Assembly (NCBI GenBank): GCA_039096225.1
Contig: JBBPEB010000024.1
Coordinates: forward strand, 1 to 64,000
Source of the DNA: Blastocystis sp. Blastoise
Taxonomy: Eukaryota; Protista; Bigyra: Opalinata
DNA length: 64,000 nucleotides
Direction: 5' to 3'
In this document: positions 1-44,854 of the stretch, in pieces
Layout: every line of letters begins with the position of its first letter
How positions within the stretch are numbered: the first letter of the stretch is position 1
The notes under the pieces: generated by a model
Seen by the model: only the letters and a program-made list of their open reading frames with translations
Told to the model about the DNA's origin: nothing
Database searches by the model: none
Translations under genes and position numbers: made by a program

Positions 1-460
1 TATAAGTTAATAAATCTGTTTTAATAAACCAATTAGTAAAGACATGCATACCCCAACTATAGACAGTATCATTTACTTTAATTTTTCTATTCACGGTTTT
101 CTTTGTAGTTAAGATATTCATATCATTTGGATTATATATTTTTATAAATAATTCACTAACTCTTTCAATTAATTTATGAATATTTTCATCAGTAAGATCT
201 GAGAAATCATTAGTATGGCGGCAACAATCGAAATCAAACCAGAGTCGGCGGTAAGCTTTTTCTGTGGCAGTAGGGACAACATCGACACAATGTTTTAATT
301 CAGGGATTCCACCAGGTTGTTAACTATCAAGATAATTATTAAACATGAACTCATAAAATCTTTCAGGATTGGTAATTAACGTTGGCGGGTGGTTATCCAT
401 GGTATCTTCTTGGTTGAATGTAGAATATTTGCAAATTGTCTGATTTTGAATTTCAGCCAT
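1..460 (-). pseudogene. N-terminus of AEP-type primase (probably D5-like primase-helicase), with in-frame TAA at 320-322; runs off window
   Basis: Manual translation from ATG 460: ...YLDS*QPGG...YRRLWFDFDCC (hhhDhD motif)...YSWGMHVF (His motif); not in ORF track. Confidence 0.75.
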
Positions 461-517
461 TTTCAACGATAATTACATAAAATACAAACAAAATAAATAT
501 AAAAAGGAAAATTAAAA

Positions 518-594
518 TAAATATTGCTCCAAAGTTCGTCATATCAGGAAAAAAATGGAATGAGTGGTTTTAAATATTGCTCCAAACGTCGTCA
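518..594. repeat. Two 24-bp direct repeats in the divergent primase/SSB intergenic region
   Basis: TAAATATTGCTCCAAAGTTCGTCA (518-541) and TAAATATTGCTCCAAACGTCGTCA (571-594). Confidence 0.85.
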
Positions 595-746
595 GAGTGA
601 CTCAGTGATTTGTCAAAAGATATTGGAATATTATTGGTTAAAAACGCAATTATAGTGGAAACAGAGAATTGTTTCTCGCCAGTGTCATTTTAGGTTTTGA
701 AGATATTTATTTTTCATATTTTATTTATTTTTTGATTTTTTTGAAA

Positions 747-1487
747 ATGTCTAGTGTTGTTATCCGCCCTGAAGAACCCTTTGATACTGCGAAGTTATCC
801 CTTATTAAGTTAGAATCTACTGATAATGTCTCTAAAAGGTATGATGTATGTTATGATGGTAAGAAAATGTTAATTCAAACTCCCGCCTTAATTGCTCCTT
901 TTGCTTTGAAATATTTCCCTGATGGTTTCTCTTCTAAATTAACTTTATTTATGGATAATGAAGAATTTAATAATATGGTAAAGCTGATTGATGAATTTGT
1001 ATATATGTCTTTATTCCCTAATGCTGAAGATCGTGCAACTTATATGGATTTTGTAATGAAGAAATATCCTTTTTCTCTTGATAATAATAATGGAATTAAT
1101 TGTTCTTCTGATAAGTGTTCTTGTTTATCTGTTAATAGGCCTTCTAATTTACTTTATTATATAGATTCTCCAATGAAAAGTACTCCAATTAAGGTAATGA
1201 CTGTGAATGTCCCATTAAGTAATAATTGTGTTCGTTTGAATACTTATGATTGTGAGCAACACCTGTTAACTTGTTTTCAAAATGAAAGATACCCCGTACA
1301 AAAATTTAATGAAACGTTCTTAACTCCTGGTAGCTTAATTAAGATTTTATTTTCAGTTGGTGTGAATTATAAGATAATAAATGGTAATCCCCGTTATTTT
1401 TTCAATTTATATGCTAATCAATTGATGATCATTGAAAGAAATACTCAAAGTCTGAATACTATCCCTGTATGCTCTATTAAACCTTAA
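747..1487 (+). CDS. Putative ssDNA-binding protein (DUF2738/T7 gp2.5-like OB fold)
   Basis: YDGKKMLIQTPALIAPF...KLTL motif and C-terminal ANQLMI; likely ATG at 747; divergent from primase. Confidence 0.55.
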   Translation: MSSVVIRPEEPFDTAKLSLIKLESTDNVSKRYDVCYDGKKMLIQTPALIAPFALKYFPDGFSSKLTLFMDNEEFNNMVKLIDEFVYMSLFPNAEDRATYMDFVMKKYPFSLDNNNGINCSSDKCSCLSVNRPSNLLYYIDSPMKSTPIKVMTVNVPLSNNCVRLNTYDCEQHLLTCFQNERYPVQKFNETFLTPGSLIKILFSVGVNYKIINGNPRYFFNLYANQLMIIERNTQSLNTIPVCSIKP

Positions 1488-1574
1488 ACATTTTTATTAT
1501 ATATTTTTTTGTCTTTTTATAATATTTTTATATTTTTAATATTTTGTTTTGTTTTATAATTTAATTATTTCTAT

Positions 1575-2417
1575 ATGTCAAAACAGTGTTTTTCCTTTAT
1601 AATTTGGCCAGGTAGTAAACGTCGCTTTGCTTCTCAAATTGCTGATATTATTCAAACATTACCTAATGAAAAAAATGAATTTCCAACTTATGTAGAACCA
1701 TTTATAGGTAGTGGTCATGTATTTCTGAATATAATTCAGCAAGATATTGCCCATGGAATAATAGGCCGTCAATACGTAATTAATGATACAAATACTGACT
1801 TAATTAATTGCTGGAAATTTATACGTAATTTTCCAATGGAATTAATGCAAGAATTAGAAAAAATAAGTTTTGATGAAGATAATACTGAAAATTACTATAA
1901 TTTACGTAAAGTCTTTAATGAATGTAAAGAACCATTTTTACGTAGTGTATATTTTATTGCATTAAATAAGAAATGTTTCTGTGGTGTATATTCTGTAAAT
2001 AAAAAAGGTGAATTTAATACTCCTTGGGGATATAATAAGAATCGTCGATTATATAATGAAAAAATAATATTGAATATATCTTCATTTTTAAATTTGAATG
2101 ATGTATTAATATTAAATGAAGATTATAAAACAATAATAAAAATGTTTCCAAAAGCTATATATTATATGGATCCTCCTTATTTAGGTACATTTGATCGTTA
2201 TAGTAAAGATAAATTTTCTAATGATGAATTTTTAGAAAATGTGAAAACTATGAAAGATGCTACTGGTGTATATATATCATGTAATAATGATATGAAAGAT
2301 ACATTTGATAAAAAAGATATTAAATATACTGAAGTATTATCTTTTTGTCGTCAAAATACTTATATACGTAGTAAAGGTGCAAAATATGATGAATATCTAT
2401 TACATATAAATTATTAA
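1575..2417 (+). CDS. dam: Dam-like (D12 class) DNA adenine methyltransferase
   Basis: WPGSK, YVEPFIGSG, IND.N.DLIN, N..G.FN.P.G and YMDPPY motifs. Confidence 0.93.
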   Translation: MSKQCFSFIIWPGSKRRFASQIADIIQTLPNEKNEFPTYVEPFIGSGHVFLNIIQQDIAHGIIGRQYVINDTNTDLINCWKFIRNFPMELMQELEKISFDEDNTENYYNLRKVFNECKEPFLRSVYFIALNKKCFCGVYSVNKKGEFNTPWGYNKNRRLYNEKIILNISSFLNLNDVLILNEDYKTIIKMFPKAIYYMDPPYLGTFDRYSKDKFSNDEFLENVKTMKDATGVYISCNNDMKDTFDKKDIKYTEVLSFCRQNTYIRSKGAKYDEYLLHINY

Positions 2418-2480
2418 ATTATATATAAAATTATTTTATTATTATAATCTTAGTTTTGTTTTAAAAAATATTTTATAATA

Positions 2481-3962
2481 ATGCAAAGTTGTGTATTAGG
2501 TATGCCAAGCCCTGGTACGTTTGGAATGAATAAAAAGGGTGTTGGTAAACAATTTCGAACGTATGAAGCACAGCCACTACATACACCAGATCAATATAAT
2601 CCATTAATATTTGAAGTAAATCCAAATTCATCATTTTCAGTTTCTAACTTAAAAAAGAAAGAAATAAATGATGGTAAAAAAGATACTTATATTAACCGTG
2701 AAAAAGAATTTGGTATAAATACCGGTGCTGGCGGTGCATTAATAAAAGCTAAACCCGTGGGAAAAGGTGTAATAAATAAAAGAAGATATGATGATGATAT
2801 TGATGATGAAACAGAAGCTCATGATATAAATGAACCAAGAGTAGTACCTACAAATTTTAGGGCAAGAAACCGTATGGGTCCAAAAGGTAAGGGATTAGCT
2901 TATAATTCCCGTGAATTAAGTAAATTACAAAATAACCAAGGGAGTGGTATATTTACAAAAGCAATAGGTCATACGATGAAAGCTATAGGTAAAGCAACTA
3001 AACATAAATCAGTAGAAAGTATAGGTAATATGTTAAGTGGAAATGGTATAGTACGTAATGTAGTAGGTAATGCTACAAAAGCTGTAGGTAGATTAGCTAA
3101 TAATCAAACAATACAAGATATTGGAGATAATATTTCAGGGAAACGTGACACAGTTATTAATACAACCACTAGAATTTCTAGACCAAATAATGAAAGAGTG
3201 GAATCCGAGAAACCTAATAAATCATTTGGTGGAACACTAATAGAAAATCATTTATCAGGTGTTATAACAGCAATGAATGAATGTAAAGGTGGTGCAATGA
3301 GTGATAAGGCTGTAACACGATTTTATAAAACAAAACATAAAAAAGGAAAATTAATTCCACCACAAATAGCATATGCTTTACAGTATATGGTAGATAACCG
3401 TAAAGGAATGCGTGCAGCTGGCTTAAAACCACTGAATATGTCTAAAATACGTAAATATATAGATTTTAGTGAATCTCCTGATGGTAATCATTTGCGGCTT
3501 AGGCGTGGTGGTGGTGTAGTTGATGAAATTATGGGTGTAGTAAAGAATTTACCAGATATATGGAATACAGTAAAGACAATTCCTTCTAAAATAATGTATT
3601 ATGCACAACCAGGTAAATTAAAAGAAGCATGGGATACAATGAAAGAAGAAAATGAAATTAAAAAACAAGAAATGGAAGTAGAAGGTGATTATCATAAAGA
3701 AGAATTAAAAGAAAGAAAGAAAAATTTAGAAAATTACCAGAAACAGAAAGCAGCAAATTCCAAGCAAATTGTTCAAAATGATAATTTAATTGCTGATAGT
3801 TCTGAAAAAACTTCAGATGCGCCTGAAATAGAAAATAAGCCAGATAAAGCTAGTGGTGTATTACGTGCTGCTGGTAGTAAACAAAAATTAAAAGGTAAAG
3901 CATTTTATGAATATATGCAACAATGTAAACGAAATAAACATGGCAATAAGTCAAAAAACTAA
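2481..3962 (+). CDS. Basic GxG-rich putative virion core protein (paralogue A)
   Basis: Lys/Arg/Gly-rich with repeated GAG/GKG/GSG/GGG; homologous to 24581-25699; ends in A_AAA_AAC-TAA. Confidence 0.6.
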   Translation: MQSCVLGMPSPGTFGMNKKGVGKQFRTYEAQPLHTPDQYNPLIFEVNPNSSFSVSNLKKKEINDGKKDTYINREKEFGINTGAGGALIKAKPVGKGVINKRRYDDDIDDETEAHDINEPRVVPTNFRARNRMGPKGKGLAYNSRELSKLQNNQGSGIFTKAIGHTMKAIGKATKHKSVESIGNMLSGNGIVRNVVGNATKAVGRLANNQTIQDIGDNISGKRDTVINTTTRISRPNNERVESEKPNKSFGGTLIENHLSGVITAMNECKGGAMSDKAVTRFYKTKHKKGKLIPPQIAYALQYMVDNRKGMRAAGLKPLNMSKIRKYIDFSESPDGNHLRLRRGGGVVDEIMGVVKNLPDIWNTVKTIPSKIMYYAQPGKLKEAWDTMKEENEIKKQEMEVEGDYHKEELKERKKNLENYQKQKAANSKQIVQNDNLIADSSEKTSDAPEIENKPDKASGVLRAAGSKQKLKGKAFYEYMQQCKRNKHGNKSKN

Positions 3963-4543
3963 GAGGAGGAGGTTTAGAAGAAAGTAAAAATGAGAAAATA
4001 ATACAAGAACACTTAGATTGTGATAATCCTATTATAAGTGATTCTGATAGAAAAGTAACTCCTAGATCTCCCGAAGATTTTTCTCAAAAAATTAGTCAAT
4101 ATTCATCAGTTCCCATGAATTTATTAAAACAAGTATATAACTACGGTTATTTAAATAAACCAACAAGTGCGGTGGCTTGTAGCCGTGCAAAGTCAACAAT
4201 GAATATGTTAAATCAGTCAAATTCAGAAGGTTTTAATTATTATAATAGTTATGAAGAATTTGAAAATAATATAGATAATGATAGAACAAAATATAATATG
4301 ATATTTCATCAAAGTAATTCAGATCCTAACTTTGGCCATTTTGAAGCTATTATCTATACTCCAAAGAAAATAGAACATTATAGTAGTCTTGGGAATAAAC
4401 CAAATTTTAGTAGAAATTTTGTAAATAGTCATAATATAGTATTCAGTCCAATTCAGCATCAAAGCACGTCTGAAAATGCTAATGGTTGTTTTTATTATTC
4501 TTTATTATATTTAATTAGTCACGGTAATGTAATGCCATGTTGA
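3953..4543 (+). CDS. Adenain/Ulp1-like maturation cysteine protease, probably reached by -1 frameshift
   Basis: FGHFEA (His), YSSLG, QHQS...NGCFYY (Gln/Cys); frame open from 3950 and conserved with element 2 about 50 aa upstream of first ATG (4115). Confidence 0.8.
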   Translation, partial: KKLRGGGLEESKNEKIIQEHLDCDNPIISDSDRKVTPRSPEDFSQKISQYSSVPMNLLKQVYNYGYLNKPTSAVACSRAKSTMNMLNQSNSEGFNYYNSYEEFENNIDNDRTKYNMIFHQSNSDPNFGHFEAIIYTPKKIEHYSSLGNKPNFSRNFVNSHNIVFSPIQHQSTSENANGCFYYSLLYLISHGNVMPC

Positions 4544-4630
4544 AAAATTCTGATGTGAACTGAATATATTAAATAAAATAAATTCAAGGTTATTGACATA
4601 ATTATTTTATTTTTCTATATAGTAATAAAA

Positions 4631-5050
4631 ATGTCACAACCTATTAATATGCATAATATGACTTATGCAAATTTTGCTGAAGAATTACGTGGTATAAAAA
4701 AAGATGCTATAAGGTCCTATGGAAACCGTATATTTAGTTTATGTTGTAGATTTATAGATTTTCATAAGAATGCAAATTTTACAAAAAATGAATTAAATGG
4801 TTTACGTCGTGCCAGTGAATTTATAGACGATAATCAATGTCGTAAAGAAATTCAAAATATTATAGATAAGGAAATACAAAAAATATATTCTAAGAATATT
4901 TATAATAATAATAATTCTATTCTATCTTCACAACCACATATATCTTCTATAGATAATGATTTAACACAGCCACCCTTTATAAATAATAATCGTATGAATC
5001 AAAATGATTGTATGTCAGTAAATTCTTTTTTTAATAATAATAATAATTAA
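4631..5050 (+). CDS. Conserved hypothetical protein
   Basis: Homologous to 23454-23939 (M.QP...F..FH...K.EL..LR/IR); same position after protease. Confidence 0.75.
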   Translation: MSQPINMHNMTYANFAEELRGIKKDAIRSYGNRIFSLCCRFIDFHKNANFTKNELNGLRRASEFIDDNQCRKEIQNIIDKEIQKIYSKNIYNNNNSILSSQPHISSIDNDLTQPPFINNNRMNQNDCMSVNSFFNNNNN

Positions 5051-5196: not shown

Positions 5197-5829
5197 TCAT
5201 TCTTTATCAGAACTACTACTATTTTCTTCAGATTCAGAAATACAATCAAGATTAAGCATTGGAAAATCAATTAAAGGAGTTAAATTACGTTCAGGTTGAC
5301 TTGGTTCAATCTTAGTTCTTTTAGCTTCATGAGTAGGAGTTCTTGGTGGAGTATCAATACCATTCTTAGATATATTATACTTTACAAATTTTTCACATTC
5401 ATCATATTTTTCTTTACGAATTCTTTTCATTTCCTTAAATAATTCTCTAGGATTACGAATACTTTGAGCTTCTGTTTCAATATATATAAGACAATTATCT
5501 ATATCTCTGAGTCCCTCAAAAATTCGTTTTTCTATATATACATGAAGCTCTCTATTATCAGTAGAATAATCAATAAGAGCTAAATGTTCAGGGGCAGCTT
5601 TCTTGGCATTTTCATCATTCAAGATTTCATCATATAATTGTATGGTTTCACCTAAATAAGAAATTAATTGTTTCACATTTTTCATTGTTTCACGAATATC
5701 AAAAACATTATCTACAAAAGTACTTTCATGAGGTTCACCAATATTCCATTTCAATAATTTCAGTTTCTTTTCTAATTTTTTTTCTTTAAGGAGTTCAGAG
5801 TAAGGTAATTTATTCAAATCTTCAGACAT
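5197..5829 (-). CDS. Hypothetical protein, helical N-part, TP motifs, acidic Ser tail
   Basis: 210-aa ORF with ATG and downstream TGTTTAGTT motif. Confidence 0.65.
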   Translation of the reverse strand: MSEDLNKLPYSELLKEKKLEKKLKLLKWNIGEPHESTFVDNVFDIRETMKNVKQLISYLGETIQLYDEILNDENAKKAAPEHLALIDYSTDNRELHVYIEKRIFEGLRDIDNCLIYIETEAQSIRNPRELFKEMKRIRKEKYDECEKFVKYNISKNGIDTPPRTPTHEAKRTKIEPSQPERNLTPLIDFPMLNLDCISESEENSSSSDKE

Positions 5830-5950: not shown

Positions 5951-8267
5951 TTAATTATATTGGATCTTTAATAGTATGACACACCTAACGTCACAACGAA
6001 TTTCAAATGACGTAATACTTGGTAATAATGACAGCATACTGCGATTACATACATACGTATTTGGTTTCATATATTGTTTTATACAATCATATTTTTGATC
6101 AGAATTATAAAAATAAGGTAATTCCCCTGGGAATATCATATGAATAATATTTTGATATTTATTAGGGAAACAATTAAGAGAAACTATTCCATTTGTGTTT
6201 TCTGTAATATTTGTAGATAATACTAAAATATTTGTTAAATAAACATTATTATATTTTAAGACTTTATGAATATTAAAACTTAATTTGTCTGAATTTGTAA
6301 AATCACAATAAATTTCATCCCAATCTAAGAATAACCGTGGGATTGTTACAGGTTCACAGACATTACAAATAATATTTCCTTGAAAAGGATGATCAAATAA
6401 TAATTTTATATTATGATTTACAGAAATTGGAGAATTTACATTATTATAATAGAGAAACTTTTGATCTGTATTAAATATACAAACAGGATTTTGAAAATTA
6501 TTTATATATAATGAATTTATTTGACCAGTAGTTGTAGGACTATAATTTTGTATAATAATATCTTTTATAGTTTTATTTATTAAATTCAAATCTTTAAAAT
6601 CAGTTTCAAAATCGATATCTTGAGTTAAACATGATAAATTTAAATTTTTTAATGTTTGTGGCTGTTCTAAACAATCAACAGTATCTTTTAATTCTAAAAA
6701 ACCAAGTAATTTTGTATTATCTGCTATTGCTATTCCATTTCCTAAATTATCAGTAAAACGAAATCTTAAAAAATCTGTATGTGTTGTTCCTACATTAACA
6801 TGACTATTTATCATTTCATGAAATTGATTATTCCCAAGGGGATTTCGTATTGGTATACAACATAAGCAATTATTCATAGTATCTGATATATTACAGTGAC
6901 ATTGTAAAACTGATTTTTTTCCCAGTAATATTAGCTACATTCTCACTTATTTTTATATCATCATTTAAATAATATTCTTGTGTAAATCCTAATATTTCAC
7001 GTAACTGTGGGCAACTAGCAAAATTAATAAATCTTGCATCTATATATGTATGATATGTAGGAATAATAGTAGTATTTATTGGAGGTGTATATCCTGGTAC
7101 CCATTGTTTTAATTCTTCTGGATAATCTGTATATTTAGGCATTGGACCATCTTGTACATCCCACATATTTATAGGTGTAAATGAATTAAAATATTTAAAT
7201 GTTTGTAAATTATGTAATATACCATAATAATCCATTAAACTATGTTCTAAGTCATAATTACTTAAATAAACATAATTTAATTCTTCATTTTGTAAATACC
7301 AGAATGGATGTTCTTCTGTCCAGTCATCAAGTGTATCAATACCACCGGGTTGTATTGTTGTCACCCATTCAATACTTATTTGTCTACAAAATTCTTCATA
7401 AAATGATTTTTGTGTATATGTTCCAGGAGGTATAGTAATAAGAAACATTTTTGGATCATCAGCACCCATACTCACATATATTGTATTTTTTCCTTCTTCA
7501 ATATCAGCAAAATTAACTACTCTATCAAATTTCCATTCTTGTTTACATATTGTTTTATCATTAGTATCAATAAAATTAATATAATTATATTTATTATAAT
7601 CACCTGATATACTACTTGCTAATGTATTAAAATGAAATGTATGTGCAGTACTAAAAATACCTGTAGTAGTACCATGATTAATCCAATGTATAGTTTCACC
7701 ACTATTTGCTAATCGTATACTATAAACAAATTCACTCCAATCTACGCAAAATCTACTTGTTGTATCTTTATCAGACCAAAAACTATTCATTCCCCATACA
7801 ATTTCTTCTACATATTCTTGTTCTGTATATTTACCATTAGGTATAGTTGATTGTTGATTTCTTCCTGCACTAATATATATTTTTACTTTATTATTATTTG
7901 AATCTACAACAAAGATTTTAGGTTGTTCATAAGTATAAGATAATAAAGCAATATTTTCATTATTTTCTTCTTGTTTTAATTTAAATCCAGTTCTATTTAA
8001 TAAAGTAGATAAATCATAATAACCTTTAGGAATATCAATAAGACTACCATTTATAGCTAATGTTTCATCTTGTTCAATAGTATTAAATATAGGTATTTGC
8101 TCATTATTAGAATTAATATTACTACATAAATTAAGATCAACAAAACCTATAGTATCACCTTGTATATCAATATTTGTATCAAGATGTACATCAAATTCAT
8201 TATTAACACTTAAAGTGTTAATAGGTATAATTTGTGTTTTAATAATATTATCATTAGTTTCAAACAT
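5951..8267 (-). CDS. Large minor-capsid/penton-like protein with repeated IPxGxY insertion modules; split by 1-nt frameshift near 6915
   Basis: Removing one A from the A7 run gives ITGKKSVLQCHCN, collinear with ITQGKSMLRCHSN in element 2. Confidence 0.65.
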
Positions 8268-13216: not shown

Positions 13217-13218
13217 TT

Positions 13219-20759: not shown

Positions 20760-20936
20760 TGTTGTTCTTTAAAATATTTCAAATCAAAAAATGAATTTGA
20801 TATCTTTTAAATTCACCCCTGGATTTCTTTTTTCATTATAAAAATTTAATAAATAAAATATACCCCCATGATTATAATTTTTTTTATTTTTTTTTAATTT
20901 AAAATATTTCTCATTTTTATTTTATTTTTGGAAAGA

Positions 20937-21349: not shown

Positions 21350-21531
21350 AATAATTGAATTCCTGTTAGTATTTTTTTATTTATTTTTTAAATTTTTAAA
21401 CCACTAAAATCGAATATTCTTTTTTAATATTTATAAAAAGAATAATTAGAACTGACTCTATTTAAAAATATATTTTAATAATTTCACATAATTTATTTAT
21501 TTTTTAATTCTTTAAAAGTGGATATTTACGA

Positions 21532-23939: not shown

Positions 23940-24008
23940 ATTAATTAAAAAATAAATAATTATGATTAATGTTTTAATCTAATAAAATATATTCGTTTTT
24001 ATATTCGT

Positions 24009-35715: not shown

Positions 35716-36084
35716 ATGGAAGCTGTATCTCATATGAGTTGTATAAATAGTAGTTTTTATCTTGAAAGATTTAATAATACGTTAAATTTAAATAATAAAA
35801 ATATTACTTATATAAATACTATGATTAATACACTAAAAATTAGAAGTAATAATGATGTAACAATGTTACGAGTATATTGTAATTTTATTGATCATGATAA
35901 TGATTTAATCATGATTCCTTTATATGCTGAACAAGGATTGGATAATATTTATTCATTAAGTAATATTTCTATTCCTTGTATAAATGGTCAATATAATGAA
36001 ATTTATTGGGAAATATATGACCAATTAAATCGTCCAATAACTCTTGATGAAGGAGCTTTAACTATTCATTTTACTGCATGTTAA
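35716..36084 (+). CDS. Minimal 122-aa penton/minor-capsid-like protein
   Basis: Orthologue of 11393-12047 without the insertion. Confidence 0.65.
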   Translation: MEAVSHMSCINSSFYLERFNNTLNLNNKNITYINTMINTLKIRSNNDVTMLRVYCNFIDHDNDLIMIPLYAEQGLDNIYSLSNISIPCINGQYNEIYWEIYDQLNRPITLDEGALTIHFTAC

Positions 36085-36167: not shown

Positions 36168-37217
36168 ATGCCAAAAGAAAACAACCAATTAAAATCTAAA
36201 AATAAATCATTAGGAGCATTATCATTTAAATTTGATGAAACTGGTGTAGAGACTTATGAATCTAAATTTATTATGATTATTGCAAAAACAATGTCTGGAA
36301 AATCATTTTTAACCGTGAATTTGTTATGTTGTATGGATTTAGATAATAAATATAGTCAAGTAACATTATTTTGCCCTGATGCTTCTAATAAAAATTAATG
36401 TTATGCTGGATTACGAGATATTTTGAAACATGCTGATATAAAATTTCAATGGTATGATAGTGAAGATGAAAAATTTAAAAAGATACGTAATGTAAATGAT
36501 TTAGTTACAGTTTATAATATTCCACAACACAATTTTATTGTATTAGATGATATATATCCATTAACAATGTATACTAAAGAATTAATAATGTCTATATTAT
36601 CACGTGGACGACATTATAAACAAAATATGATATGTTGCTTACAAAGTCATTTAAAAATTACAATTCAGTCTATTATTAATCAAGTTAGTCATTTATTTGT
36701 GAATAGCCAATTACTTAAAGTGAATTTAGATTTTGTTACAGATAAATTAGATTTACCAGTGAATAACCTAAATGAAATTATGAATGATACAAAATTATTA
36801 GAAGACCCTCATCAATTTTATATGTACGCACAAGGTAGTTATGAATTAATACCATGGAAAAATCCTGAATATAAATCAAAAGAGGAATTATATAGAATAG
36901 TAAAAAAAAGAAAATGGACTGAAGCAGATGAAAAAAAGGAAAAGGAAAAAGAAAAAGAAAATAGAAACAATTCTTTATCAGCAATTTCGAATAAAAAAAC
37001 TTTAGAAAATATTGAGTCAAAAAAATTGAAAAAATTATTTAATATTGAAGATGATTTTACACCACCAAATATAGAAGAAGAAAATGAAAATATTCATGGG
37101 GATGATGTAATGAGTTTAATCAATAATGAAATAAGAAATCAACGTCAATTAAGTATATATAATCCCTTTAATGAAGGTCGTCAATTTCTTAATTTTCCTT
37201 TAAATAATGAATTTTAA
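36168..37217 (+). pseudogene. Packaging ATPase (element 2) with in-frame TAA at 36396-36398
   Basis: AKTMSGKS, FIVLDD, RGRHY; stop aligns with Glu in element 1. Confidence 0.85.
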
Positions 37218-38374: not shown

Positions 38375-39466
38375 ATGGAAAGTAATTACATGACAAATAC
38401 AAAAGCAATGACTGGAATTAATAGACTTGCTATTGGTAAAGAGTATTCACCATATAAAGGAAAATCATATGTTCATGATACAAATTATCATAAAGGAGTC
38501 CATTGGAATTCTAAAGCTAATTCTTATTTTACAAAACAACAAGAAATTGATGATTCTATTAATCAATCATTTGGTGCTGGTATCGCTGGATTTATAAGAA
38601 ATAGTCCAAATAAATCAGTTTTTAAAAGTTTACAACATCCTCATCACAATAATTATGGTGGTGGAATTAATCATCATGGTTGTTTATCCAATGAAATGGC
38701 AAAAAGACTAATTATTACTAATGATTATATTATTCCAAAATTAATTGAACAAAATCATTCCTGTGGAGCTGGTTTAAAGAAAATCATTAATAAAGAAGCA
38801 ATTATTGATAATTTTGATTTTAGTGGCAAATATGGAGGTAATATACATGTCAAAAAAGGTGGAGCATGGAAAATATTAAGTACCATTAATAAATATTTAC
38901 CATTTAAAAGAAATAATGTTTCAAAGAATATTCCAAAAGGTGACGAGGATGAAGATATGCCCCCTAGAAGTCATGGATCAGTAGCTGCTGATTGGAGAGC
39001 TTATACTGAAAGGAAACTGAAACATTTAAAAGAAATGGGTAAAATTGCCTTAGTAGCAGGAAAAAAAGATTTAGGCATGATAAAAGACACATTTCTTCAT
39101 CCTAAACCAGATACTACAATTAAAGACAGATTTGAAAGTATAAAGCAAAATAGTAGTTTGGTGAAAAAATTTAAAAAACTCTACAAGCAAGGCGAAACTA
39201 GATATAATACATATCTTTTCAGTAATCCTAAAAATGAAAGTCCCCTCATTGATAGCGCATCAACTGACTTTTTTAGATATGTTCAAGCAGGTATCGCTGC
39301 AAAACAAGGAATAAAACAAAAAATTCATCATATAAAAAATCAATTATTTAATCATGGAGATAAAAAAAAACCTTATGTTAAACCCAAAATTGGTGAAACA
39401 TATCGTGATGCAAATAAAAGCAAAAATGGAGACTTAATCATCAATCCGCATTGTAGCGACCTCTGA
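38375..39466 (+). CDS. GxG-rich core protein paralogue B (element 2)
   Basis: Syntenic with 15078; GAG/GGG motifs, KKGGAW. Confidence 0.55.
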   Translation: MESNYMTNTKAMTGINRLAIGKEYSPYKGKSYVHDTNYHKGVHWNSKANSYFTKQQEIDDSINQSFGAGIAGFIRNSPNKSVFKSLQHPHHNNYGGGINHHGCLSNEMAKRLIITNDYIIPKLIEQNHSCGAGLKKIINKEAIIDNFDFSGKYGGNIHVKKGGAWKILSTINKYLPFKRNNVSKNIPKGDEDEDMPPRSHGSVAADWRAYTERKLKHLKEMGKIALVAGKKDLGMIKDTFLHPKPDTTIKDRFESIKQNSSLVKKFKKLYKQGETRYNTYLFSNPKNESPLIDSASTDFFRYVQAGIAAKQGIKQKIHHIKNQLFNHGDKKKPYVKPKIGETYRDANKSKNGDLIINPHCSDL

Positions 39467-42299
39467 AGAAATTAGAAAAGGAATTATTAAGGATAATAAT
39501 GCTAGTGTGAATGATAGTATTGAAGATTTAGCAAGAAAAGAACAACGCATTCATTTATCTAGAAAAGTGTTACATCCTGAATATGAATATGACTCTCAAG
39601 CGTATAAGGATAGAATAGACGATAATAATACTGAAAGAGAAAAAAGAATTATGCTAAGATTAATGAAAGCAAAACAGCATTTAGTATATAAATATTATGA
39701 TGAAGATGACCCTTTTAAGATTCCTGAATCAGAATGGTATAAAAAGGAAAATAGTTTATTACCCGAATGGTCAAAAGATATAATAAATAATTTTGAGCTT
39801 AATCATTATGAAAAATTTGGAAATGATGCAGTTAATGATGATTTAACAAATGAATTAATTTCAAATAGTGAGCAACATCAAAATGATATTAATGAAACTT
39901 ATGCAGAAATTTTTGGATTACCTAAATATTTTATGTATGGTATATATCCCCATGGTTCTGAAGACGAAAAAAATAAATCAAATAATAATAAATGGATTGA
40001 GCCAGAACAACCTTATGATAAAACAAAATATCATCCTTATAATAATTTTGATTATTCAAATGCATTTAATATCGATGATCCTGAATATTCAGAGATTTAT
40101 AAAAAATATACTTATAAACCAAATGAAATGCAAGATAATAATAATGAATCCATGAATAATAATAATAATTATCATGAAATTAATCCTGATAGAAATGATT
40201 CTTCTGATGAATATGAAAATAATGATAATGATAATGCAAATAATTCTATGGAAATAGAATCAAATGATCAAAATAGTAATATTGACATTGATAACTCAAA
40301 TCAGAGTAATGGAAGCATGGATAATAATGTTTCTCAACAAAATAATGACAATATTGATATTGATAACCAACCATTCCATGAAGAAAATAATATTCCAAAT
40401 TTAAATGAAATGGTTGATAACAATGAAAATCATAAAGAAAATGATACAAATGTACAAATCGATAATAATAATAATGTTCCAGTCACAGAAGATAGATTTA
40501 TACTTGTTGACAATAATCAATTGAATTCGATGAATTTAAATGCAAATGATGCGGATATCAGTCAATCAAATCAAAAAGAAAATGATGTTCATGACGATGT
40601 TCCAATTAAAAAAGAAATTGAAATTGAAAAAAATGTTCCAGTACAAAAAGAAATGGAAATAGAAAATAATATTCCAGTGCAAAAAGAAATGGAAATACAA
40701 GAAGATGAACGTTCTATAGAATCACCAATAATTGAAAAATTAATTCCAAATATTGATAACATAATTAGAGAATCAAATAATAATAGTTTTCAGAGTTTTC
40801 AGCCAGTAAATAATATTTCAAATGAAATAAATATAAAATCAGAAAATATGTCACTTTTAGACCAAAATATAAATTCACAACAAAATAGTAGTGATAATAA
40901 TATGACTTCATCTGAAAGTGATGATAACATGTTTTCTTCATCTTCTTTTCAAACTGCTGATGATATGTCATCTTCTGATGCCTCTATGAAAAGTTTATTT
41001 TCTGAATCGGAGAATCTAAATGATATGGAAATAGAAACTCAACCAAATATTACAGAAAGTCAAATAAATTCAAATATTCAAAATAATATTAATTATTCCA
41101 TAAATAATAATGTTCCTAATTATAATGATAACACATTCAAAATTGATATTACAACCAATGAATTTAATACATCGGATATAAATATTCCAAAAATTAATGA
41201 ACAATCCAATAATATAATTGCATCTCAAAACTTTATTAATAACTCTTTATTACCCGAAAATTCAAATCAACAAAATGATTATAATGTTCAATTAACGTCA
41301 AACAATAATTTAAATAAAGATTCAGATAATAGTGATTCTGTCGCTGATATTGAAACTGATGACAACAACAAAATATTCAATATATATCCATCATCGTCAG
41401 ATGAAGAATCTGATTTACATTATGATGACATGCATAATTTAGTATTAGATACAGAAGACAAACAACGAGGATACTATAATTACATGGTAAATAAATTAAA
41501 TAGTTTCCAAGGAACATCATATAAAACACTTCCAGAAAATGCAAATATTAATTATCCACTATTAAAGACTTATATGTCTGAGTTGCAAACTAATTATAAT
41601 CAACACTTATCTGATATAAAGAATCTAAAAAAATATAAACATCATTTAACTGACCAAAATGAAATACAAGATACTAATGTATATATTGATGATATTAAAA
41701 CAATGATTACAAATTTAGCAGATGATTTTATTGATACATTCCAGAATTTTGATGATTCTAATTCAAATAACCAATCACAAAGTACTGTTTCATCTAATAA
41801 TAATAGTATGATGCAAAATAATGTAAAACTAGAAGAACCAGCAAACTTAGCAAATGAAATTAATTTACCTCTAAATAAAAATGGCGACACAATTAATTCC
41901 GTTGAAGAATTATTACAAAATGATTTTCAAACATTTTTTAATGAAATGGAAAGTATTCATAATCAAACTTTTAATAATATGGAAGCAAACACAGCCTCAA
42001 TACAAAATCCTCTGAATTCACAAAATCATATTAATGATTCTTTTGAAACAAACATGATAAATAATAGTGTTTCTCCAGATACAAATCAACCTATTCCTAT
42101 TGAACGGCAAGAAACAAATCTATCTTCTGATTCTTCTGAAATAGATACTTTTATGGGAAAACTAGAAAAAACTATAGGGAAAAAATCCAAACCAAAAAAT
42201 ACTAAATTCGCTGAAGAAATGATGAATAATTTAGATGAATCATTTAAAAAATATAATGAAAATACTTTACTTAATCATAAAATTCTCGTCCATCATTAA
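39438..42299 (+). CDS. Large Asn/Asp/Glu-rich low-complexity protein, possibly a frameshifted continuation of 38375 ORF
   Basis: Open from 39438 without nearby ATG; three VP/IP-xxKE-IEI/MEI repeats; coding-like sequence continues past 42299 in another frame. Confidence 0.55.
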   Translation, partial: SSIRIVATSEEIRKGIIKDNNASVNDSIEDLARKEQRIHLSRKVLHPEYEYDSQAYKDRIDDNNTEREKRIMLRLMKAKQHLVYKYYDEDDPFKIPESEWYKKENSLLPEWSKDIINNFELNHYEKFGNDAVNDDLTNELISNSEQHQNDINETYAEIFGLPKYFMYGIYPHGSEDEKNKSNNNKWIEPEQPYDKTKYHPYNNFDYSNAFNIDDPEYSEIYKKYTYKPNEMQDNNNESMNNNNNYHEINPDRNDSSDEYENNDNDNANNSMEIESNDQNSNIDIDNSNQSNGSMDNNVSQQNNDNIDIDNQPFHEENNIPNLNEMVDNNENHKENDTNVQIDNNNNVPVTEDRFILVDNNQLNSMNLNANDADISQSNQKENDVHDDVPIKKEIEIEKNVPVQKEMEIENNIPVQKEMEIQEDERSIESPIIEKLIPNIDNIIRESNNNSFQSFQPVNNISNEINIKSENMSLLDQNINSQQNSSDNNMTSSESDDNMFSSSSFQTADDMSSSDASMKSLFSESENLNDMEIETQPNITESQINSNIQNNINYSINNNVPNYNDNTFKIDITTNEFNTSDINIPKINEQSNNIIASQNFINNSLLPENSNQQNDYNVQLTSNNNLNKDSDNSDSVADIETDDNNKIFNIYPSSSDEESDLHYDDMHNLVLDTEDKQRGYYNYMVNKLNSFQGTSYKTLPENANINYPLLKTYMSELQTNYNQHLSDIKNLKKYKHHLTDQNEIQDTNVYIDDIKTMITNLADDFIDTFQNFDDSNSNNQSQSTVSSNNNSMMQNNVKLEEPANLANEINLPLNKNGDTINSVEELLQNDFQTFFNEMESIHNQTFNNMEANTASIQNPLNSQNHINDSFETNMINNSVSPDTNQPIPIERQETNLSSDSSEIDTFMGKLEKTIGKKSKPKNTKFAEEMMNNLDESFKKYNENTLLNHKILVHH

Positions 42300-42717
42300 A
42301 TAATAATGAACAAGTAAAACGAGTAGTAGTAAATTCTTCAGATAATTCAGATTCTGTTGGTGAATTCCATAAATATGGAAAAAAATCTAAAAAAGATATG
42401 GAGAATCAAGTACAAAAGAAACCAATCATAAATAAAAAAAAACAAAAATGAATCTAAATCCATGATAAAACCACAAATAACTCAACATATCTTAAATAAA
42501 TGATATCAAATAACATCTTTGTACAAATATCTAAACTGATATAAAATCATTAACCAATATATTTATTTATTAAAAATATCTTTTAAACGTAAATCTTTTA
42601 TTTATAAATTATTTATTATATTTTAATTGTTGTGTTTTTTTAAAAATAAGTTTTTAAACTATAAACAAAACAATTTATTATTTAAAAAAAAATTAAACAA
42701 AACAAAAAAAAACAAAG

Positions 42718-42919
42718 TTAATAAAAACCTTTTTTTCTTTGTTGCTCACGATAGTAAGCAAGAGCAGGAGACATTCTAGCTACTTTCTGATCTTTCAGAA
42801 AATTTAAGCTAGCAGGAACGGGTTCACTATATAAATAAATAAATAAATAAAAAATAATAATAAACATACCCTATTGGTTTTGTTTCTAAAAATTTTTCGT
42901 CCTTTTCAGGAACTGGCAT
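42718..42919 (-). CDS. 52-aa protein with 43-nt intron (42827-42869)
   Basis: MPVPEKDEKFLETKPIG/EPVPASLNFLKDQKVARMSPALAYYREQQRKKGFY*; GTATGT...ATATAG; TGTTTTGTT downstream. Confidence 0.65.
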
Positions 42920-43370
42920 TCTTATAAAAAATAAATAAAAAATAAATAAAAAATGATTTGAAAATATTAAAAATGTAAATAAAATAGAGAAACTTGTGTT
43001 TAATGACGAAATATATGACAAATATAAAATATTTAAAATATCCAATCAAAATAAAGTTCTAGAATTCTTAAACATGATCGAAAAGAGAAACTATTACTAA
43101 TAAATCAATTGAAATTGGAGAACTTTGTTCTGAATGTGGTGATCGATCAATGACAAACTTCATGACAAAGGTAGTATACAAAATTTTATCCAATAAAAAT
43201 GTTTTGGAACAACAGAAGCTATAAAAAAGTGGAAACTGAGCAAATGAACTTATTCTTTTAGAATAAATTTTCTCATCTGACTTTTTTTATAACCATTAAT
43301 TTTTATAGCCATTCATTGAGTTTTACTTTTTTTATTTTTACATATTTATTTTATTTTTTGAAAATTTAAA

Positions 43371-44181
43371 ATGCCTAGCCACTATCTTTCCCGTGGTAGA
43401 AGAGCTATTATGAATAGCTATAATCATTACAGTATGTTTTTATTTATTTTTATGTTTTTTATTATATAGTTGCCCACCGATCTGAGGATCGTGCTGTCTC
43501 TGGTGCTGTTCCTGGTGCTGTTCCTGGTGCTGCTGCTGAATCTGTTGATTCAGTAACTTTTAAGTTACTGAATCATGATTCTTCTCTTGGGGAGGTGTCT
43601 GATCACTGGGGATCTATGTCACCACCACCTCTTGAGAGAATTGTTCCTTCGTCTTCAGATTCTGAAAAGACGCTGGAATCAGATTCAGACTCTTCTCTTG
43701 CTACTTTGAAGGTAATTGAACCCGATACCGGGAAAAAAAGTATTTATTTTATTTATATTATTTCTATTTTTATTTTTTTATAGCGCCATTGTGTCCCGGT
43801 TCTCTTGGTCCGCGGGTTTTGGAAGAAACCGCCTTCTACGCTCCAAAAAGGACTAGAAGGGATGGATCTTCCTACCCAGAAAAAAATTTAAATAAAAATA
43901 TTTGTTTTTCTCCTTGTTCTCCTTCTATTTCTGTTTTTTCTTTTTCTCCTGTTTCTCCTTTTTATGTTCCTTGTTCTCCTCCTGTTTCTCCTTCTTTATC
44001 TTTATTTTCTCCTCGTTTTTCTCCTGTTTCTCCTTGTTCTCGCACTTGTTCTATTAATGAAAAAATACCTCCAATTCAATTACCTCCCGTGGTAATTGAG
44101 ATGCCGGTATCTGAGGGTTCAATCATAAAAGGAAATAAAAAGATTGAATATAAGTTACATCTGAAAATTTCAGATTTATAA
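43371..44181 (+). CDS. Ser/Pro-rich protein with two introns (43432-43469, 43740-43783)
   Basis: Both GT-AG introns restore one continuous frame linking ATG 43371 to ORFs 43595 and 43789. Confidence 0.72.
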
Positions 44182-44445
44182 TCAGTCTTTTTTTCTTTTT
44201 TTCTTTTTCTTTATATATATATATATATTTCTTTTTCTTTTATTATATATATTTATATACTTATTTTTTTTTTTTTGCCTAAGTTAATTTTTAAACTCAT
44301 TTGTTTAGTTAAATATTTCAGACTAATACTTAAACTGCTGAATCTAAAATATTAAATAACTTAGAATATTTTTATTTTTTTTGACTTAGATTTTTTTTTT
44401 ATTTTTATTACAATAATTTTCTATACTGTCTTCATGCACCAATTT

Positions 44446-44854
44446 TTTCGTTCAACCAATCAAATGATTCCGAACTGGCTCTTTTTTTGGTCAAAAATAA
44501 ACTTTTGTATATATGGGGTTACGTACTTACTTATTCATTTTTTTTATAAAGTAGTAAGTAAGTAAATAGAATATATAAAAAGTTAGAAAAGTAAAAAAAG
44601 GATGACAGAGGGTGCGTCATCACTGATTTGACCAATCAAATTGTTTAAAATAGTTATTTATGGGAAAAACATATTTTATAGTGTATTTTTCACTATTTCC
44701 TTGATTTTTCTATATGATAAGAATTAGTAATTCTTCGCACAAACCCACACAAATATGGGCAACATCCCTATGCTAGCGAAGTTCTACGAACTTCGCTAGC
44801 ATAGGGATGTCGGCCATATCTTGGCCGCCTGGGTTTGTGCGAAGAATTAGTAAT
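44446..44854 (-). repeat. Right TIR of element 2 with terminal hairpin
   Basis: Inverted copy of left end; perfect stem ACATCCCTATGCTAGCGAAGTTC-tac-GAACTTCGCTAGCATAGGGATGT. Confidence 0.93.

Follow-up and report, generated by a model that had tools for sequence, protein, structure and literature searches.

Two adjoining, partly decayed Polinton-like viruses without PolB, likely of Blastocystis, with doubled capsid and recombinase genes and a putative core-protease frameshift

Genes shared by the two elements

Two related, partly decayed DNA viruses, whose host is likely the gut protist Blastocystis, adjoin in the window (the whole stretch of 64,000 nucleotides that was analysed; Table 1). The TIR pair of element 2 shows 383 matches (97% identity), and the inner ~190 nt of the left TIR occur once more at 20,568-20,760. 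Neither a TIR nor a hairpin belonging to element 1 was seen in its windowed part (1 to ~20,118).

Table 1. Features of the two elements
Feature	Element	Position	Strand	Remarks
Element 1	1	1 to ~20,118		left end outside window
Primase-helicase, N-terminal AEP part	1	2-460	-	runs off window; in-frame stop 322-320
ORF beside primase	1	747-1487	+	246 aa
Dam (D12-class adenine methyltransferase)	1	1575-2417	+	PF02086, E 6.7e-39
Core-like protein A	1	2481-3962	+	493 aa, basic, Gly-rich
Protease frame	1	3950-4543	+	-1 to core A, open back to heptamer; first ATG 4115
Slippery heptamer A_AAA_AAC	1	3953-3959	+	in phase, directly before core A stop
ORF139	1	4631-5050	+	last gene of run, then poly(A)-type motif
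ORF210	1	5197-5829	-	99% to a sister copy
Large minor-capsid (penton) candidate	1	5951-8267	-	frame broken ~6,915-6,928 in A run
MCP1	1	8340-9929	+	529 aa, MCP2 paralogue
MCP2	1	10041-11342	+	433 aa, predicted double jelly-roll
Small penton	1	11393-12043	+	carries insertion; frame broken ~11,780 in T run
Packaging-type ATPase	1	12170-13216	+	348 aa, P-loop, Walker motifs
ORF230	1	13270-13962	+
Intron-split gene (likely)	1	14021-15003	+	35-nt GT-AG intron at 14,365-14,399
Core-like protein B	1	15078-16802	+	574 aa, basic, 19.7% K+R
Small tyrosine recombinase	1	16852-17952	+	366 aa; PHROG integrase E 0.0011; catalytic residues
Large tyrosine recombinase	1	18022-19821	-	599 aa
Element 2	2	20,119-44,854		24,736 bp, TIR-bounded, the complete one
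Left TIR	2	20,119-20,512	+	394/396 nt pair with right TIR
Left branched hairpin	2	20124-20245		ATTA-C-TAAT flanks at 20,119 and 20,241
Small tyrosine recombinase	2	22429-23364	+	311 aa
ORF161	2	23454-23939	-
Protease frame	2	24009-24620	-	-1 to core A; first ATG 24,356
Core-like protein A	2	24581-25699	-	372 aa
Slippery heptamer A_AAA_AAC	2	24599-24605	-	in phase, five codons before core A stop
Dam methyltransferase	2	25734-26534	-	PF02086, E 4.4e-34
SF3 (D5-like) helicase half	2	26673-27986	+	primase half absent
Large tyrosine recombinase	2	28107-29942	-	611 aa
Large minor-capsid (penton) candidate	2	29988-32702	-	in-frame stop 31,812-31,814
MCP1	2	32772-34299	+	in-frame stop ~33,243, frame break ~33,718
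MCP2	2	34361-35671	+	436 aa, intact
Small penton	2	35716-36084	+	minimal, 122 aa
ATPase	2	36168-37217	+	in-frame stop ~36,396
Core-like protein B	2	38375-39466	+
Asn-rich ORF	2	within 38375-42299	+	882 aa
Right TIR	2	44,459-44,854	-
Right branched hairpin	2	44728-44849		ATTA-G-TAAT flanks at 44,723 and 44,846

The initial annotation had proposed about 14 shared orthologues in shuffled and inverted blocks, and both proposals were borne out. Thirteen genes are direct orthologues (tblastn, the ORF139/ORF161 pair by a separate comparison: 24%, E 2e-9), and the fourteenth, the primase-helicase, is linked only through the sister protein P0284. Identities by tblastn were 31% for Dam, 33% for core A, 53% for the protease, 31-46% for the large penton, 35-43% for MCP1, 45% for MCP2, 49% over 73 aa for the small penton, 48% for the ATPase, and 30% and 43% for the small and large recombinases, respectively. 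The ORFs at 14,021 and 38,082 are 65% identical over 46 aa, while the N-terminal 24 aa of ORF230 match the ORF at 37,254 weakly (54%, E 4e-4). Taking the capsid block as reference, the elements differ by an inversion of the primase|Dam-core-protease block and by the positions of their recombinases. The core B proteins of the two elements gave no alignment at E<=1, their pairing being positional only.

The doubling of the capsid genes was confirmed in both elements: MCP1 and MCP2 are 30% identical (E 3e-38) and form separate clades in a tree (support 0.98). A model of element 1 MCP2 (pLDDT 82, pTM 0.83), with structural Z scores of 18.5 to the faustovirus MCP, 18.3 to PBCV-1 and 16.1 to Sputnik, predicts a double jelly-roll fold for MCP2 with good confidence, while MCP1 is a putative capsid paralogue on account of its 30% identity. 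The earlier jelly-roll assignment thus stands for MCP2 by predicted fold and for MCP1 by paralogy only. By analogy with Trimcap PLVs, the two might co-assemble in mixed capsomers.

Two pentons are likely. The large candidate is a single gene of 770-773 aa in sister copies and is broken in both window copies. Its label is a weak one, drawn from motifs and slight similarity: the element 2 candidate is 24% identical to the small penton over 67 aa (blastp E 0.014, five-sequence comparison), and an Atlas search with the C-terminal part of the element 1 candidate gave no usable match. Both halves of the element 1 small penton align with that of element 2. The latter is a predicted single jelly-roll by likeness to Atlas clusters, its feature score being 0.97 to viral clusters and 0.94 to a cluster in which 19% of the members carry PF21507 V18-19. 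The ATPase is likely a packaging ATPase; the sister protein P0295 matched PHROG 2666 (head and packaging, E 1.5e-9), and no Pox_A32 profile match was obtained.

For core A (17.6% K+R and five GxG-hydrophobic motifs in element 1, nine such motifs in element 2), weak similarity and motifs suggest a core function. The N-terminal 50 aa of element 1 core B are 33% identical to core A (E 5e-4). In element 2, the open frame of the Asn-rich ORF extends upstream into the end of core B. The protease frame of element 1, which we take to be adenain-like, carries a His/Glu/Gln/Cys cysteine-protease-like pattern read by eye; no Pfam or PDB match was found for the frame. The 246-aa ORF might encode a single-strand binding protein, a guess from a motif, and matched nothing in Pfam, NCBIfam, PHROGs or PDB sequences. 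None of the core, protease, large penton and SSB labels had a database match. Excision of the 35-nt intron leaves 315 open codons, while 27- and 40-nt alternatives run into early stops, and 14021-15003 is likely one gene.

Neither window copy is a complete virus because both carry in-frame stops. Element 2 is a deletion derivative that lost the primase half and probably one neighbouring gene; its type is also present at a second locus and was therefore likely copied with help from intact relatives.

Ends, replication and affinities

The AEP primase-SF3 helicase of the initial annotation exists as one fused protein in the sister copy P0284 (1,038 aa, AEP-PriCT-SF3; AEP-type motifs at 72 and 139, weak PriCT_2 at E 0.12, PHROG primase at E 3e-12), but element 2 keeps only residues 602-1038 (99.8% identity; PF19263, E 1.8e-4). 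The element 1 part is 40% identical to residues 9-154 (E 8e-25). As proposed before, pPolB and rve were not found: there were no Pfam matches to either among 42 ORFs of the window, and a crude six-frame scan with PolB/rve motifs gave no match between the element 2 TIRs. The AEP-PriCT-SF3 protein may unwind the genome and prime or copy it with host help.

Each element has a small and a large tyrosine recombinase, in agreement with the doubling claimed, and the catalytic R-K-R-H-Y is kept in both (R199, K238, R322, H361 and Y370 invariant in 16 of 16 aligned sequences). A model of residues 1-390 of the element 2 large recombinase gave Z 13.2 with Cre (rmsd 4.7, 289 aligned) against 6.1 and 4.9 with the protelomerases TelA and TelK, which places it, by predicted fold, closer to Cre/Xer. 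The recombinases would integrate the element.

Each element 2 TIR ends in a stretch of ~125 nt, bounded by ATTA-S-TAAT, which by computed folding can form a branched hairpin (left, -47.3 kcal/mol, z -13.2; right, -58.7 kcal/mol, z -16.2; 0/200 shuffles each). The right one has a 23-bp perfect central stem with a 3-nt loop, one 6-bp ear and a ~20-bp outer stem. The two were the most stable of 3,194 windows of 130 nt (-56 and -47 against a mean of -7.5, sd 3.5). Both have the same orientation and hence provide no evidence of flip/flop. Such ends were seen in element 2 only.

There is about an even chance that the genome in its free form is a linear molecule ending in fold-backs, Cre-like recombinases cutting at the stem base; with such ends protein priming would not be needed. 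One recombinase might then serve integration and excision and the other the resolution of replicated ends. Somewhat less probable is excision and replication as a circle through tyrosine-recombinase exchange at ATTA-S-TAAT, the hairpins being only origins or recombinase-binding cruciforms. The Cre/Xer-like fold is consistent with a circle, as are the circular products that 10.64898/2026.10.13.758929 gives as typical of tyrosine recombinases and the recombination-target-like junctions (9-bp core at both, 11/14 symmetric flank bases, a length chosen after inspection). For a circle, however, 125-nt fold-backs at the two ends are unnecessary, simple exchange between inverted sites gives no excision, and terminal palindromes accompany non-pPolB replicases in Halocafeteria elements.

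The search for further copies that had been suggested was productive, revealing two more loci of the element 1 type, two of the element 2 type, one variant, and a third MCP2 subtype in at least 19 accessions under the organism name Blastocystis sp. Blastoise. Proteins almost identical to those of the elements bear this name as well. One MCP1 cluster and one MCP2 cluster have seven identical longest metagenome-contig sizes in common, which suggests that both genes sit on the same contigs; sizes recur near 23.7 kb (23,710, 23,715, 23,719 and 23,956) and 27.4 kb (27,391, 27,396 and 27,522). Elements 1 and 2 probably belong to a DNA virus family of ~24-27 kb whose host is likely Blastocystis, both being integrated copies in partial decay.

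An MCP profile search among 1.84 billion representatives returned 11 matches, the most distant at 19% identity, and the ATPase search only seven clusters (63-99%); in these searches neither protein had a sequence-detectable tie outside its own family. Together with AEP-SF3, tyrosine recombinases and the lack of pPolB, this supports the distinct PLV lineage suggested earlier, which on sequence grounds, and judged by means other than HMM-defined PLV group profiles, is new and likely undescribed. It is unlikely, by comparison, that the family falls into a described group (the Proteromonas MCP cluster of Bellas 2023, Blastocystis MELD, Gosseviruses or Trimcap) as a divergent member whose replication module was exchanged. 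The top viral structural match of MCP2 is indeed a MELD virus protein (TM 0.64, the next rows at 0.41-0.50), MELD viruses have been described from Blastocystis and 285 MCPs from its sister genus Proteromonas, and a search with a single profile often misses the MCPs of other PLV groups. Against membership stand the 11% identity of the MELD match, the isolation of MCP and ATPase just described, the PolB and integrase of described Blastocystis MELD viruses, and ten Blastocystis assemblies without an MCP count in Table S1 of Bellas 2023.

The core A-protease junction and expression signals

The protease is encoded in the -1 frame relative to core A in element 1 as well as in element 2, with an overlap of only 3 and 12 codons, and the conserved N-terminal part of the element 2 protease has no ATG of its own. 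Across the 34 ORFs, with 11,134 codons in all, A_AAA_AAC occurs in phase twice (1.6e-4 per codon expected by chance), both times at this junction. Retroviral Gag-Pro uses the same heptamer to join a structural protein to a -1 frame maturation protease, and the two sites point to a comparable frameshift. The -1 extension is conserved between the elements (alignment score 84, shuffle mean 23, 0/5000 shuffles). Heptamers were not significantly avoided elsewhere in the ORFs (none seen, ~1.7 expected).

It is likely that a core A-protease fusion is made through -1 ribosomal frameshifting in both elements. A few ribosomes would slip at A_AAA_AAC, a small fixed amount of protease would be packaged with the core, and the protease would then cut at Gly-x-Gly sites, as in retroviral Gag-Pro. 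That core A and protease are instead one ordinary ORF of the same virus family, offset by a homopolymer miscall or post-insertion slippage, is improbable. The window has three further frame breaks at A or T runs, where sister proteins or orthologues are intact, so such errors or slippage do occur; the exact core A and protease sequences are absent from the protein collection, so no independent copy is seen; and neither heptamer has a strong stem-loop behind it (-3.1 and -9.5 kcal/mol). One ORF would nevertheless require two independent errors at a homologous site, when about 3 of ~100 runs are broken (98 homopolymer runs of six or more in the 34 ORFs), and twice the rare CTA codon, which stands after AAA at both sites but is used for only 2 of the 58 leucines in that position elsewhere. 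Both sites are, besides, the canonical heptamer in the required phase.

The host poly(A) motif is given as TGTTTGTT in PMC4159000. Of 32 genes, 15 have a motif of this type no more than 110 nt away (a mean of 0.3 and a maximum of 3 in 1000 shuffles), made up of 8/8 run-terminal and 7/24 internal genes, with a pattern widened after a first look (strict form, 10/34). It closes each same-strand gene run, and short GT-AG introns are present; from both, host RNA polymerase II may transcribe the viral genome in the nucleus. The conserved blocks may move as units because they are transcription units. A virophage-like satellite that depends on the factory of a large gut DNA virus for all its expression and replication is improbable: the gene set (MCP, penton, ATPase, protease, YR, primase-helicase), virophage MCPs among the structural matches of MCP2 and the dependence of several PLVs on giant viruses would fit, but the host-type motif and introns of the spliceosome type speak for expression in the host nucleus, and the egovirus preprint found no gene flux between Blastocystis and egoviruses.

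As a whole, a PolB-free virus family with doubled capsid and recombinase genes and a frameshifted protease is the probable explanation. The terminal hairpins, the likely frameshift and the host poly(A) signals go beyond the initial annotation.

Comparison with known systems

A pairing of AEP-SF3 with a YR, in place of the combination of pPolB and rve, is reported as common in PLVs (Aquintoviricetes sensu Bellas & Sommaruga 2026, 10.64898/2026.06.19.733378), which share with the Blastocystis elements size, TIRs, DJR MCP, penton, ATPase and DNA methyltransferase. The Blastocystis elements differ in having no sequence-detectable MCP or ATPase link to them, and add a protease, two core-like proteins, two YRs, branched terminal hairpins, the -1 frame junction, introns and the host poly(A) motif. 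Gosseviruses/Polintoviricetes and virophages likewise have a cysteine protease with the capsid module, but the present elements lack pPolB/rve and their MCP is not detectably related by sequence.

Precedents exist for multiple capsid genes and for terminal palindromes. Trimcap PLVs, for which mixed capsomers were modelled, carry several MCP and mCP genes, in some cases two penton genes, and have stramenopile hosts; their three MCPs are highly divergent and their host marine, in contrast to two 30%-identical MCPs, a protease and a gut host here. The Blastocystis MELD virus (Starrett et al. 2021, PMC8502044) shares the host genus and divergent virion proteins, but has an adintovirus-like PolB and integrase instead of AEP-SF3 and two YRs; the "MELD virus sp." protein closest in predicted structure may belong to a different virus. 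In Halocafeteria endogenous virophages and PLV subtype 4, palindromes at TIR ends are linked to non-pPolB replicases and hairpin priming was proposed (10.64898/2026.07.28.741278); those palindromes are of 52 nt, with RVE integrases and TSDs, whereas element 2 has ~125-nt branched hairpins, tyrosine recombinases only and no clean TSD.

For adintoviruses, penton and hexon-protease slippery sites were suggested computationally, and Hexon-Adenain fusions proposed (PMC11071296). In these and in the Blastocystis elements, a slippery site would, as in Gag-Pro, join a structural protein to a -1 frame protease; here the upstream partner is core-like, and the site is conserved between elements only 33% identical in core A.

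Gene content and capsid module

Open reading frames were densely packed across positions 1 to 44,854, which contain element 1 and the 24,736-bp element 2. The terminal inverted repeats (TIRs) of element 2 agreed at 383 positions over 394/396 nt, and a segment of ~190 nt from the inner side of the left TIR was present one further time. No end of its own was found in the window for element 1, the left part of which lies beyond the window and the right limit of which is the left TIR of element 2. Direct comparison identified 13 genes common to both elements (protein identity 24-65%; about 65-70% nucleotide identity where alignable). The initial annotation had counted about 14 orthologues, including core B, a basic core-like protein which proved to be a positional match only. 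Its description of inverted blocks was borne out: allowing for loss, both elements carry the block primase/Dam-core A-protease-ORF in the same gene order, with an inversion relative to the capsid block. Since proteins 98-100% identical to those of the window carry the NCBI name "Blastocystis sp. Blastoise", this organism is the probable host.

Structure prediction covered two proteins, MCP2 and the large recombinase. The MCP2 model, built from a 35-sequence alignment (pLDDT 82), resembled the major capsid proteins (MCPs) of faustovirus (Z 18.5, rmsd 4.5 over 322 residues), PBCV-1 (Z 18.3) and Sputnik (Z 16.1). In the viral library its best match was an uncharacterised MELD virus protein (TM 0.64, 11% identity), which outranked virophage and giant-virus MCPs; the virophage matches (8-11% identity, TM 0.43-0.50) were level with other double jelly-roll proteins. 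No match to the MCP family profile was found among the sequences of solved virophage MCPs. MCP2 is predicted to be a double jelly-roll major capsid protein, as in Polinton-like viruses (PLVs), in agreement with the jelly-roll fold originally proposed. By homology to MCP2 (30% identity), MCP1 is presumed to have the same fold; it formed a separate clade (support 0.98) in a tree of 23 MCP-family proteins.

The small penton (122 aa) was linked in the Atlas, a protein cluster resource, to viral clusters (0.97) and to a cluster in which 19% of members carry PF21507, the Sputnik V18-19 family (0.94). Based on these features it is a candidate for the single jelly-roll penton of a PLV. The large penton is a single gene of 770-773 aa in three sister copies, and a count of three pentons per element was rejected, the 458+308 split being one gene. 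A weak tie between large and small pentons was seen (24% over 67 aa, E 0.014 among five sequences), and the C-terminal part of the large penton had no Atlas match. The ATPase, encoded inside the capsid block, has Walker motifs and a PHROG packaging match (E 1e-9). None of its family members (7/7) matched the Pox_A32 profile. A Gly-x-Gly-hydrophobic motif was also noted near the ATPase N-terminus, conserved in 7/7, and near the C-terminus of the large recombinase, hinting that both proteins are processed and packaged.

Coordinates of the elements and of associated features
Feature	Location	Position	Remark
TIRs	Element 2	20,119-20,512; 44,459-44,854	
A_AAA_AAC heptamer	Element 1	3,953-3,959	next bases TA
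A_AAA_AAC heptamer	Element 2	24,605-24,599	next bases TA
882-aa ORF/core B overlap	Element 2	39,440-39,466	+1 frame
Gly-x-Gly-hydrophobic motif, ATPase		12,170-12,230	
Gly-x-Gly-hydrophobic motifs, large recombinase		18,040-18,060; 28,170-28,230	
Repeated inner TIR unit	Element 2	20,330-20,760	238-nt spacing, left side only
Three or four short ORFs	Element 2	20,937-22,328	78-94 aa, after left TIR
Small genes	Element 2, right end	42,640-44,300	
GT-AG candidates	Element 2, right end	43,432; 43,740; 42,869	the last on the minus strand
Diverged direct repeats	Flank	53,663-54,451; 48,947-49,799	300 nt at 63%; three 94-nt copies
Broken ORFs	Flank	50,525-52,787	minus strand
Match to hairpin-base site	Flank	54,993-55,005	13 bases
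Long ORFs	Flank	59,515-62,989	Cys motifs, D-x-M-H string
AAT/TAT microsatellites	Flank	59,864-60,366; 62,777-62,951	

Replication genes and the core A-protease junction

The helicase of element 2 (430 aa) was 99.8% identical to residues 602-1038 of P0284, a protein of a sister copy, while the N-terminus of P0284 matched the fragment at positions 2-460 in element 1. AEP-type motifs, a weak PriCT_2 match and a PHROG primase match were identified in P0284. Because this protein joins primase features to the helicase sequence of element 2, the AEP primase-SF3 helicase postulated at the outset was right. Element 2 is without the first 601 residues of the primase-helicase, and a second locus encodes the same 430-aa product (P0283). 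Judged by accession order, the intact copy has one gene between Dam and primase, corresponding to ORF246 of element 1, which the truncated copy lacks. As the annotation had stated, neither pPolB nor rve was found between the TIRs of element 2, a deletion derivative; in the intact sister copy the AEP-SF3 gene occupies the place of the primase-helicase deletion. In-frame stops interrupt MCP1, ATPase and large penton of element 2 and the primase of element 1, and three frame breaks sit in A/T runs. Stop-codon reassignment was rejected, since the residues that homologues have at the in-frame stops are not the same. Scans for Rfam families and tRNAs returned no matches.

The labels core A, core B and protease were based on composition, Gly-x-Gly motifs (counted without a control) and a His/Glu/Gln/Cys pattern like that of adenain-type proteases. 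None of the three had a confirming match in any library searched. Relative to core A, the protease of either element lies in the -1 frame, which is open back to an in-phase A_AAA_AAC heptamer. The protease extension was conserved (score 84 against a shuffle mean of 23, 0/5000), and in element 2 its conserved N-terminal part contains no ATG. Across 11,134 codons in 34 ORFs the in-phase heptamer occurred only twice, both times at this junction (chance rate 1.6e-4 per codon), where core A and protease overlap by 3 and 12 codons. The sequence, with an X_XXY_YYZ heptamer and a conserved -1 frame, makes a -1 ribosomal frameshift between core A and protease likely.

Twin homopolymer errors could also explain the -1 offset in both elements. 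Against the frameshift, the folds downstream of the heptamers were weak (-3.1 and -9.5 kcal/mol, in a pseudoknot-free model), avoidance of the heptamer elsewhere was not significant (0 seen, ~1.7 expected) and no independent copy of the junction was found. However, two events would be required at one homologous site, when about 3 of ~100 runs are broken, and CTA would have to arise twice, a codon which accounts for 2/58 Leu codons after AAA. Conserved splicing was rejected, as no AT-rich GT-AG candidate lies at that place and a 38-nt purine-rich intron candidate fits, by eye, element 2 only. The frameshift is the preferred reading. The A_AAA_AAC heptamer is used by retroviruses. In adintoviruses -1 sites have been suggested (PMC11071296, in its accessible text). 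Separately, the frame of an 882-aa ORF in element 2 extends upstream without a stop into the terminal part of core B; the overlap contains no homopolymer and is either a lesion or a second recoding site.

Recombinases, terminal hairpins and expression

The residues R, K, R, H and Y were kept in both recombinases in 16/16 aligned sequences, with the first His of the signature replaced by Asp in the large and Asn in the small forms. Residues 1-390 of the large recombinase model matched Cre (Z 13.2, rmsd 4.7, 289 aligned), and also XerH and the Tn1549 integrase (11.5). Based on the R-K-(H)xxR-H-Y signature and, for the large one, the Cre/Xer fold, both are tyrosine recombinases, as had been claimed. 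Membership in the protelomerases was rejected, these scoring far lower (TelA Z 6.1, TelK Z 4.9); a role in hairpin resolution would nevertheless be compatible with the Cre-like model. The nearest viral models were those of Aureococcus and Tetraselmis giant viruses.

A palindrome of ~125 nt forms the end of each TIR; its predicted fold has a central stem of 23 bp, one side ear and an outer stem of ~20 bp. The two hairpins (-47.3 and -58.7 kcal/mol; z -13.2 and -16.2; 0/200 shuffles) were the best two places among 3,194 windows. ATTA-S-TAAT is found on both sides of each hairpin, the outer copy being the element end, and the flanks of element 2 were symmetric at 11/14 bases, over a span picked after inspection. 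Opening of a fold-back end at the base of its stem, followed by joining to a target, would give the junction form seen at element 2; a circular intermediate may give the same form, and the one copy fits either. A clean target-site duplication was rejected (best 8-bp match 7/8, in AT-rich DNA).

The inner TIR unit is repeated on the left side and holds several ATTTGATTGG boxes, presumably CCAAT-like; the repeat is possibly a promoter or origin. In the flank a match to the hairpin-base site (AAGAATTACTAAT) occurs with no hairpin and is of borderline chance. The flank also contains diverged direct repeats and two groups of ORFs. The long ORFs, which we take to resemble a CACTA-type transposase, had no Pfam match and are broken by microsatellites; the broken minus-strand ORFs, presumably hAT-like, had no convincing Pfam match.

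TGTTT(T/A)GTT was identified within 110 nt downstream of 15/32 genes (shuffle mean 0.3, maximum 3 in 1000), following 8/8 run-terminal and 7/24 internal genes; the pattern had been widened after a strict form gave 10/34. It closely resembles the poly(A) motif of Blastocystis, TGTTTGTT (PMC4159000). Four AT-rich GT-AG intron candidates were found, and one of 35 nt, if removed, fuses two ORFs to a frame of 315 codons. The poly(A)-type motif and the intron candidates point to host nuclear transcription with the blocks as transcription units. At its right end, element 2 has small genes that are seemingly spliced; no counterpart was seen in element 1. Downstream of two of the short ORFs after the left TIR the poly(A)-type motif recurs.

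Distribution and comparison with known systems

The MCP2 search returned 87 clusters of 44-100% identity (4 Blastocystis, 1 NCBI, 82 ENA/Logan), the ATPase search 7 clusters, all 63-99% identical, and the large recombinase search 163 clusters. Against 1.84 billion representatives the MCP2 profile detected only 11 proteins; of the five examined besides MCP2, four were MCP1 forms and the fifth was distant. The latter, P0216, is a single Logan protein of 403 aa (18-21% identity, E 8e-8); it was the sole distant MCP-family relative found and may link the family to other groups. Each element type has two further loci under the Blastocystis name, which is also borne by a variant and by at least 19 accessions that belong to a third subtype of MCP2. 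The longest contigs in capsid clusters group at 23,710-23,956 and 26,864-27,522 bp, and seven longest-contig sizes occur both in a cluster of MCP1 and in one of MCP2, which hints indirectly at unit-length genomes carrying both MCPs; the recurring contigs could be free viruses or collapsed repeats. No related viral contigs were found with MCP2, its alignment, the recombinase (alignment and P0100), the ATPase alignment or the hairpin stem. No related DNA was detected among metagenome or genome contigs, nor ATPase relatives in the phage collection, and among PDB sequences no useful match was obtained with MCP, recombinases, P0284, ATPase, ORF246 or protease. One sister locus (P0002, P0288, P0298, P0299) looks mosaic against element 1 (large penton 91-92%, ORF210 99%, MCP2 63%, ATPase 77%). 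Large pentons differ by 8-10% between copies otherwise 99% identical, suggesting exchange or selection acting on this gene.

A fuller reconstruction, which we offer tentatively and consider rather doubtful, is that of a so far unrecognised family of gut-protist DNA viruses in active circulation. A linear genome with branched fold-back ends would be copied without any family B polymerase, a second tyrosine recombinase would be dedicated to resolving those ends, the mixed capsid would be built of two proteins, and a Gag-Pro-style frameshift would place the maturation protease in the particle along with the core. If true, such a translation strategy would be shown for the first time in this virus phylum, and the family would be a candidate for the virus-like particles of Blastocystis that still lack an explanation. 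PMC10690189 ranks Blastocystis first in frequency among microbial eukaryotes of the human gut, and the 2026 review PMC12835684 treats its viruses as unconfirmed. With dozens of copies bearing a single Blastocystis name, and with 82 close ENA/Logan clusters of metagenome origin, the family supplies markers for a direct search for Blastocystis viruses. The reason for the pairing of AEP replicase and tyrosine recombinase is called elusive (10.64898/2026.10.13.758929); short defined sequences now make testable this pairing, end completion in PLVs lacking pPolB, and the dosing of maturation protease into the virion.

The family was undescribed in the open-access papers and preprint texts searched, including PMC11296320, PMC13697311 and 10.1101/2024.03.23.586382; subscription journals and bioRxiv supplements, among them the 2026 PLV profile set and tables, may bear on its novelty. 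By word search of the accessible text, viral elements are not discussed in PMC10690189 and Blastocystis is not mentioned in 10.64898/2026.06.19.733378. Accessible text of PMC10120064 lists ten Blastocystis assemblies without an MCP count and 285 for Proteromonas.

Maverick-Polintons (Polintoviricetes) have pPolB and rve, whereas neither was found in element 2. Trimcap PLVs have three MCP genes and sometimes two pentons (10.64898/2026.06.19.733378, accessible text), in contrast to two MCP genes per element here (tblastn; element 1 incomplete in the window). The Blastocystis MELD virus (Starrett 2021; PMC8502044, accessible text) has an adintovirus-like PolB and an integrase, unlike these elements, and the capsid likeness is a structural match to an unnamed MELD protein at 11% identity. 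For the Mriyavirus markers HUH endonuclease and VLTF2/VLTF3 there was no Pfam match, and HUH-like strings lay in closed frames only, both being weak tests. Terminal palindromes of 52 nt with RVE are reported in 10.64898/2026.07.28.741278. Doubled capsid genes and terminal palindromes each have a separate precedent. The distinct PLV lineage first proposed was upheld in its PLV character and, as far as gene content goes, in its separation from Polintons, Trimcap and Blastocystis MELD viruses. Without precedent in the literature searched is the combination of an isolated gut-protist capsid family, branched hairpin ends with tyrosine recombinases only, and a conserved, probable core-protease frameshift. 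With 24,736 bp between TIRs, element 2 falls within PLVs in the broad sense (15-45 kb with terminal repeats), and the family operates in the manner of a Polinton-like virus that lacks PolB and is equipped with AEP-SF3 and tyrosine recombinases.
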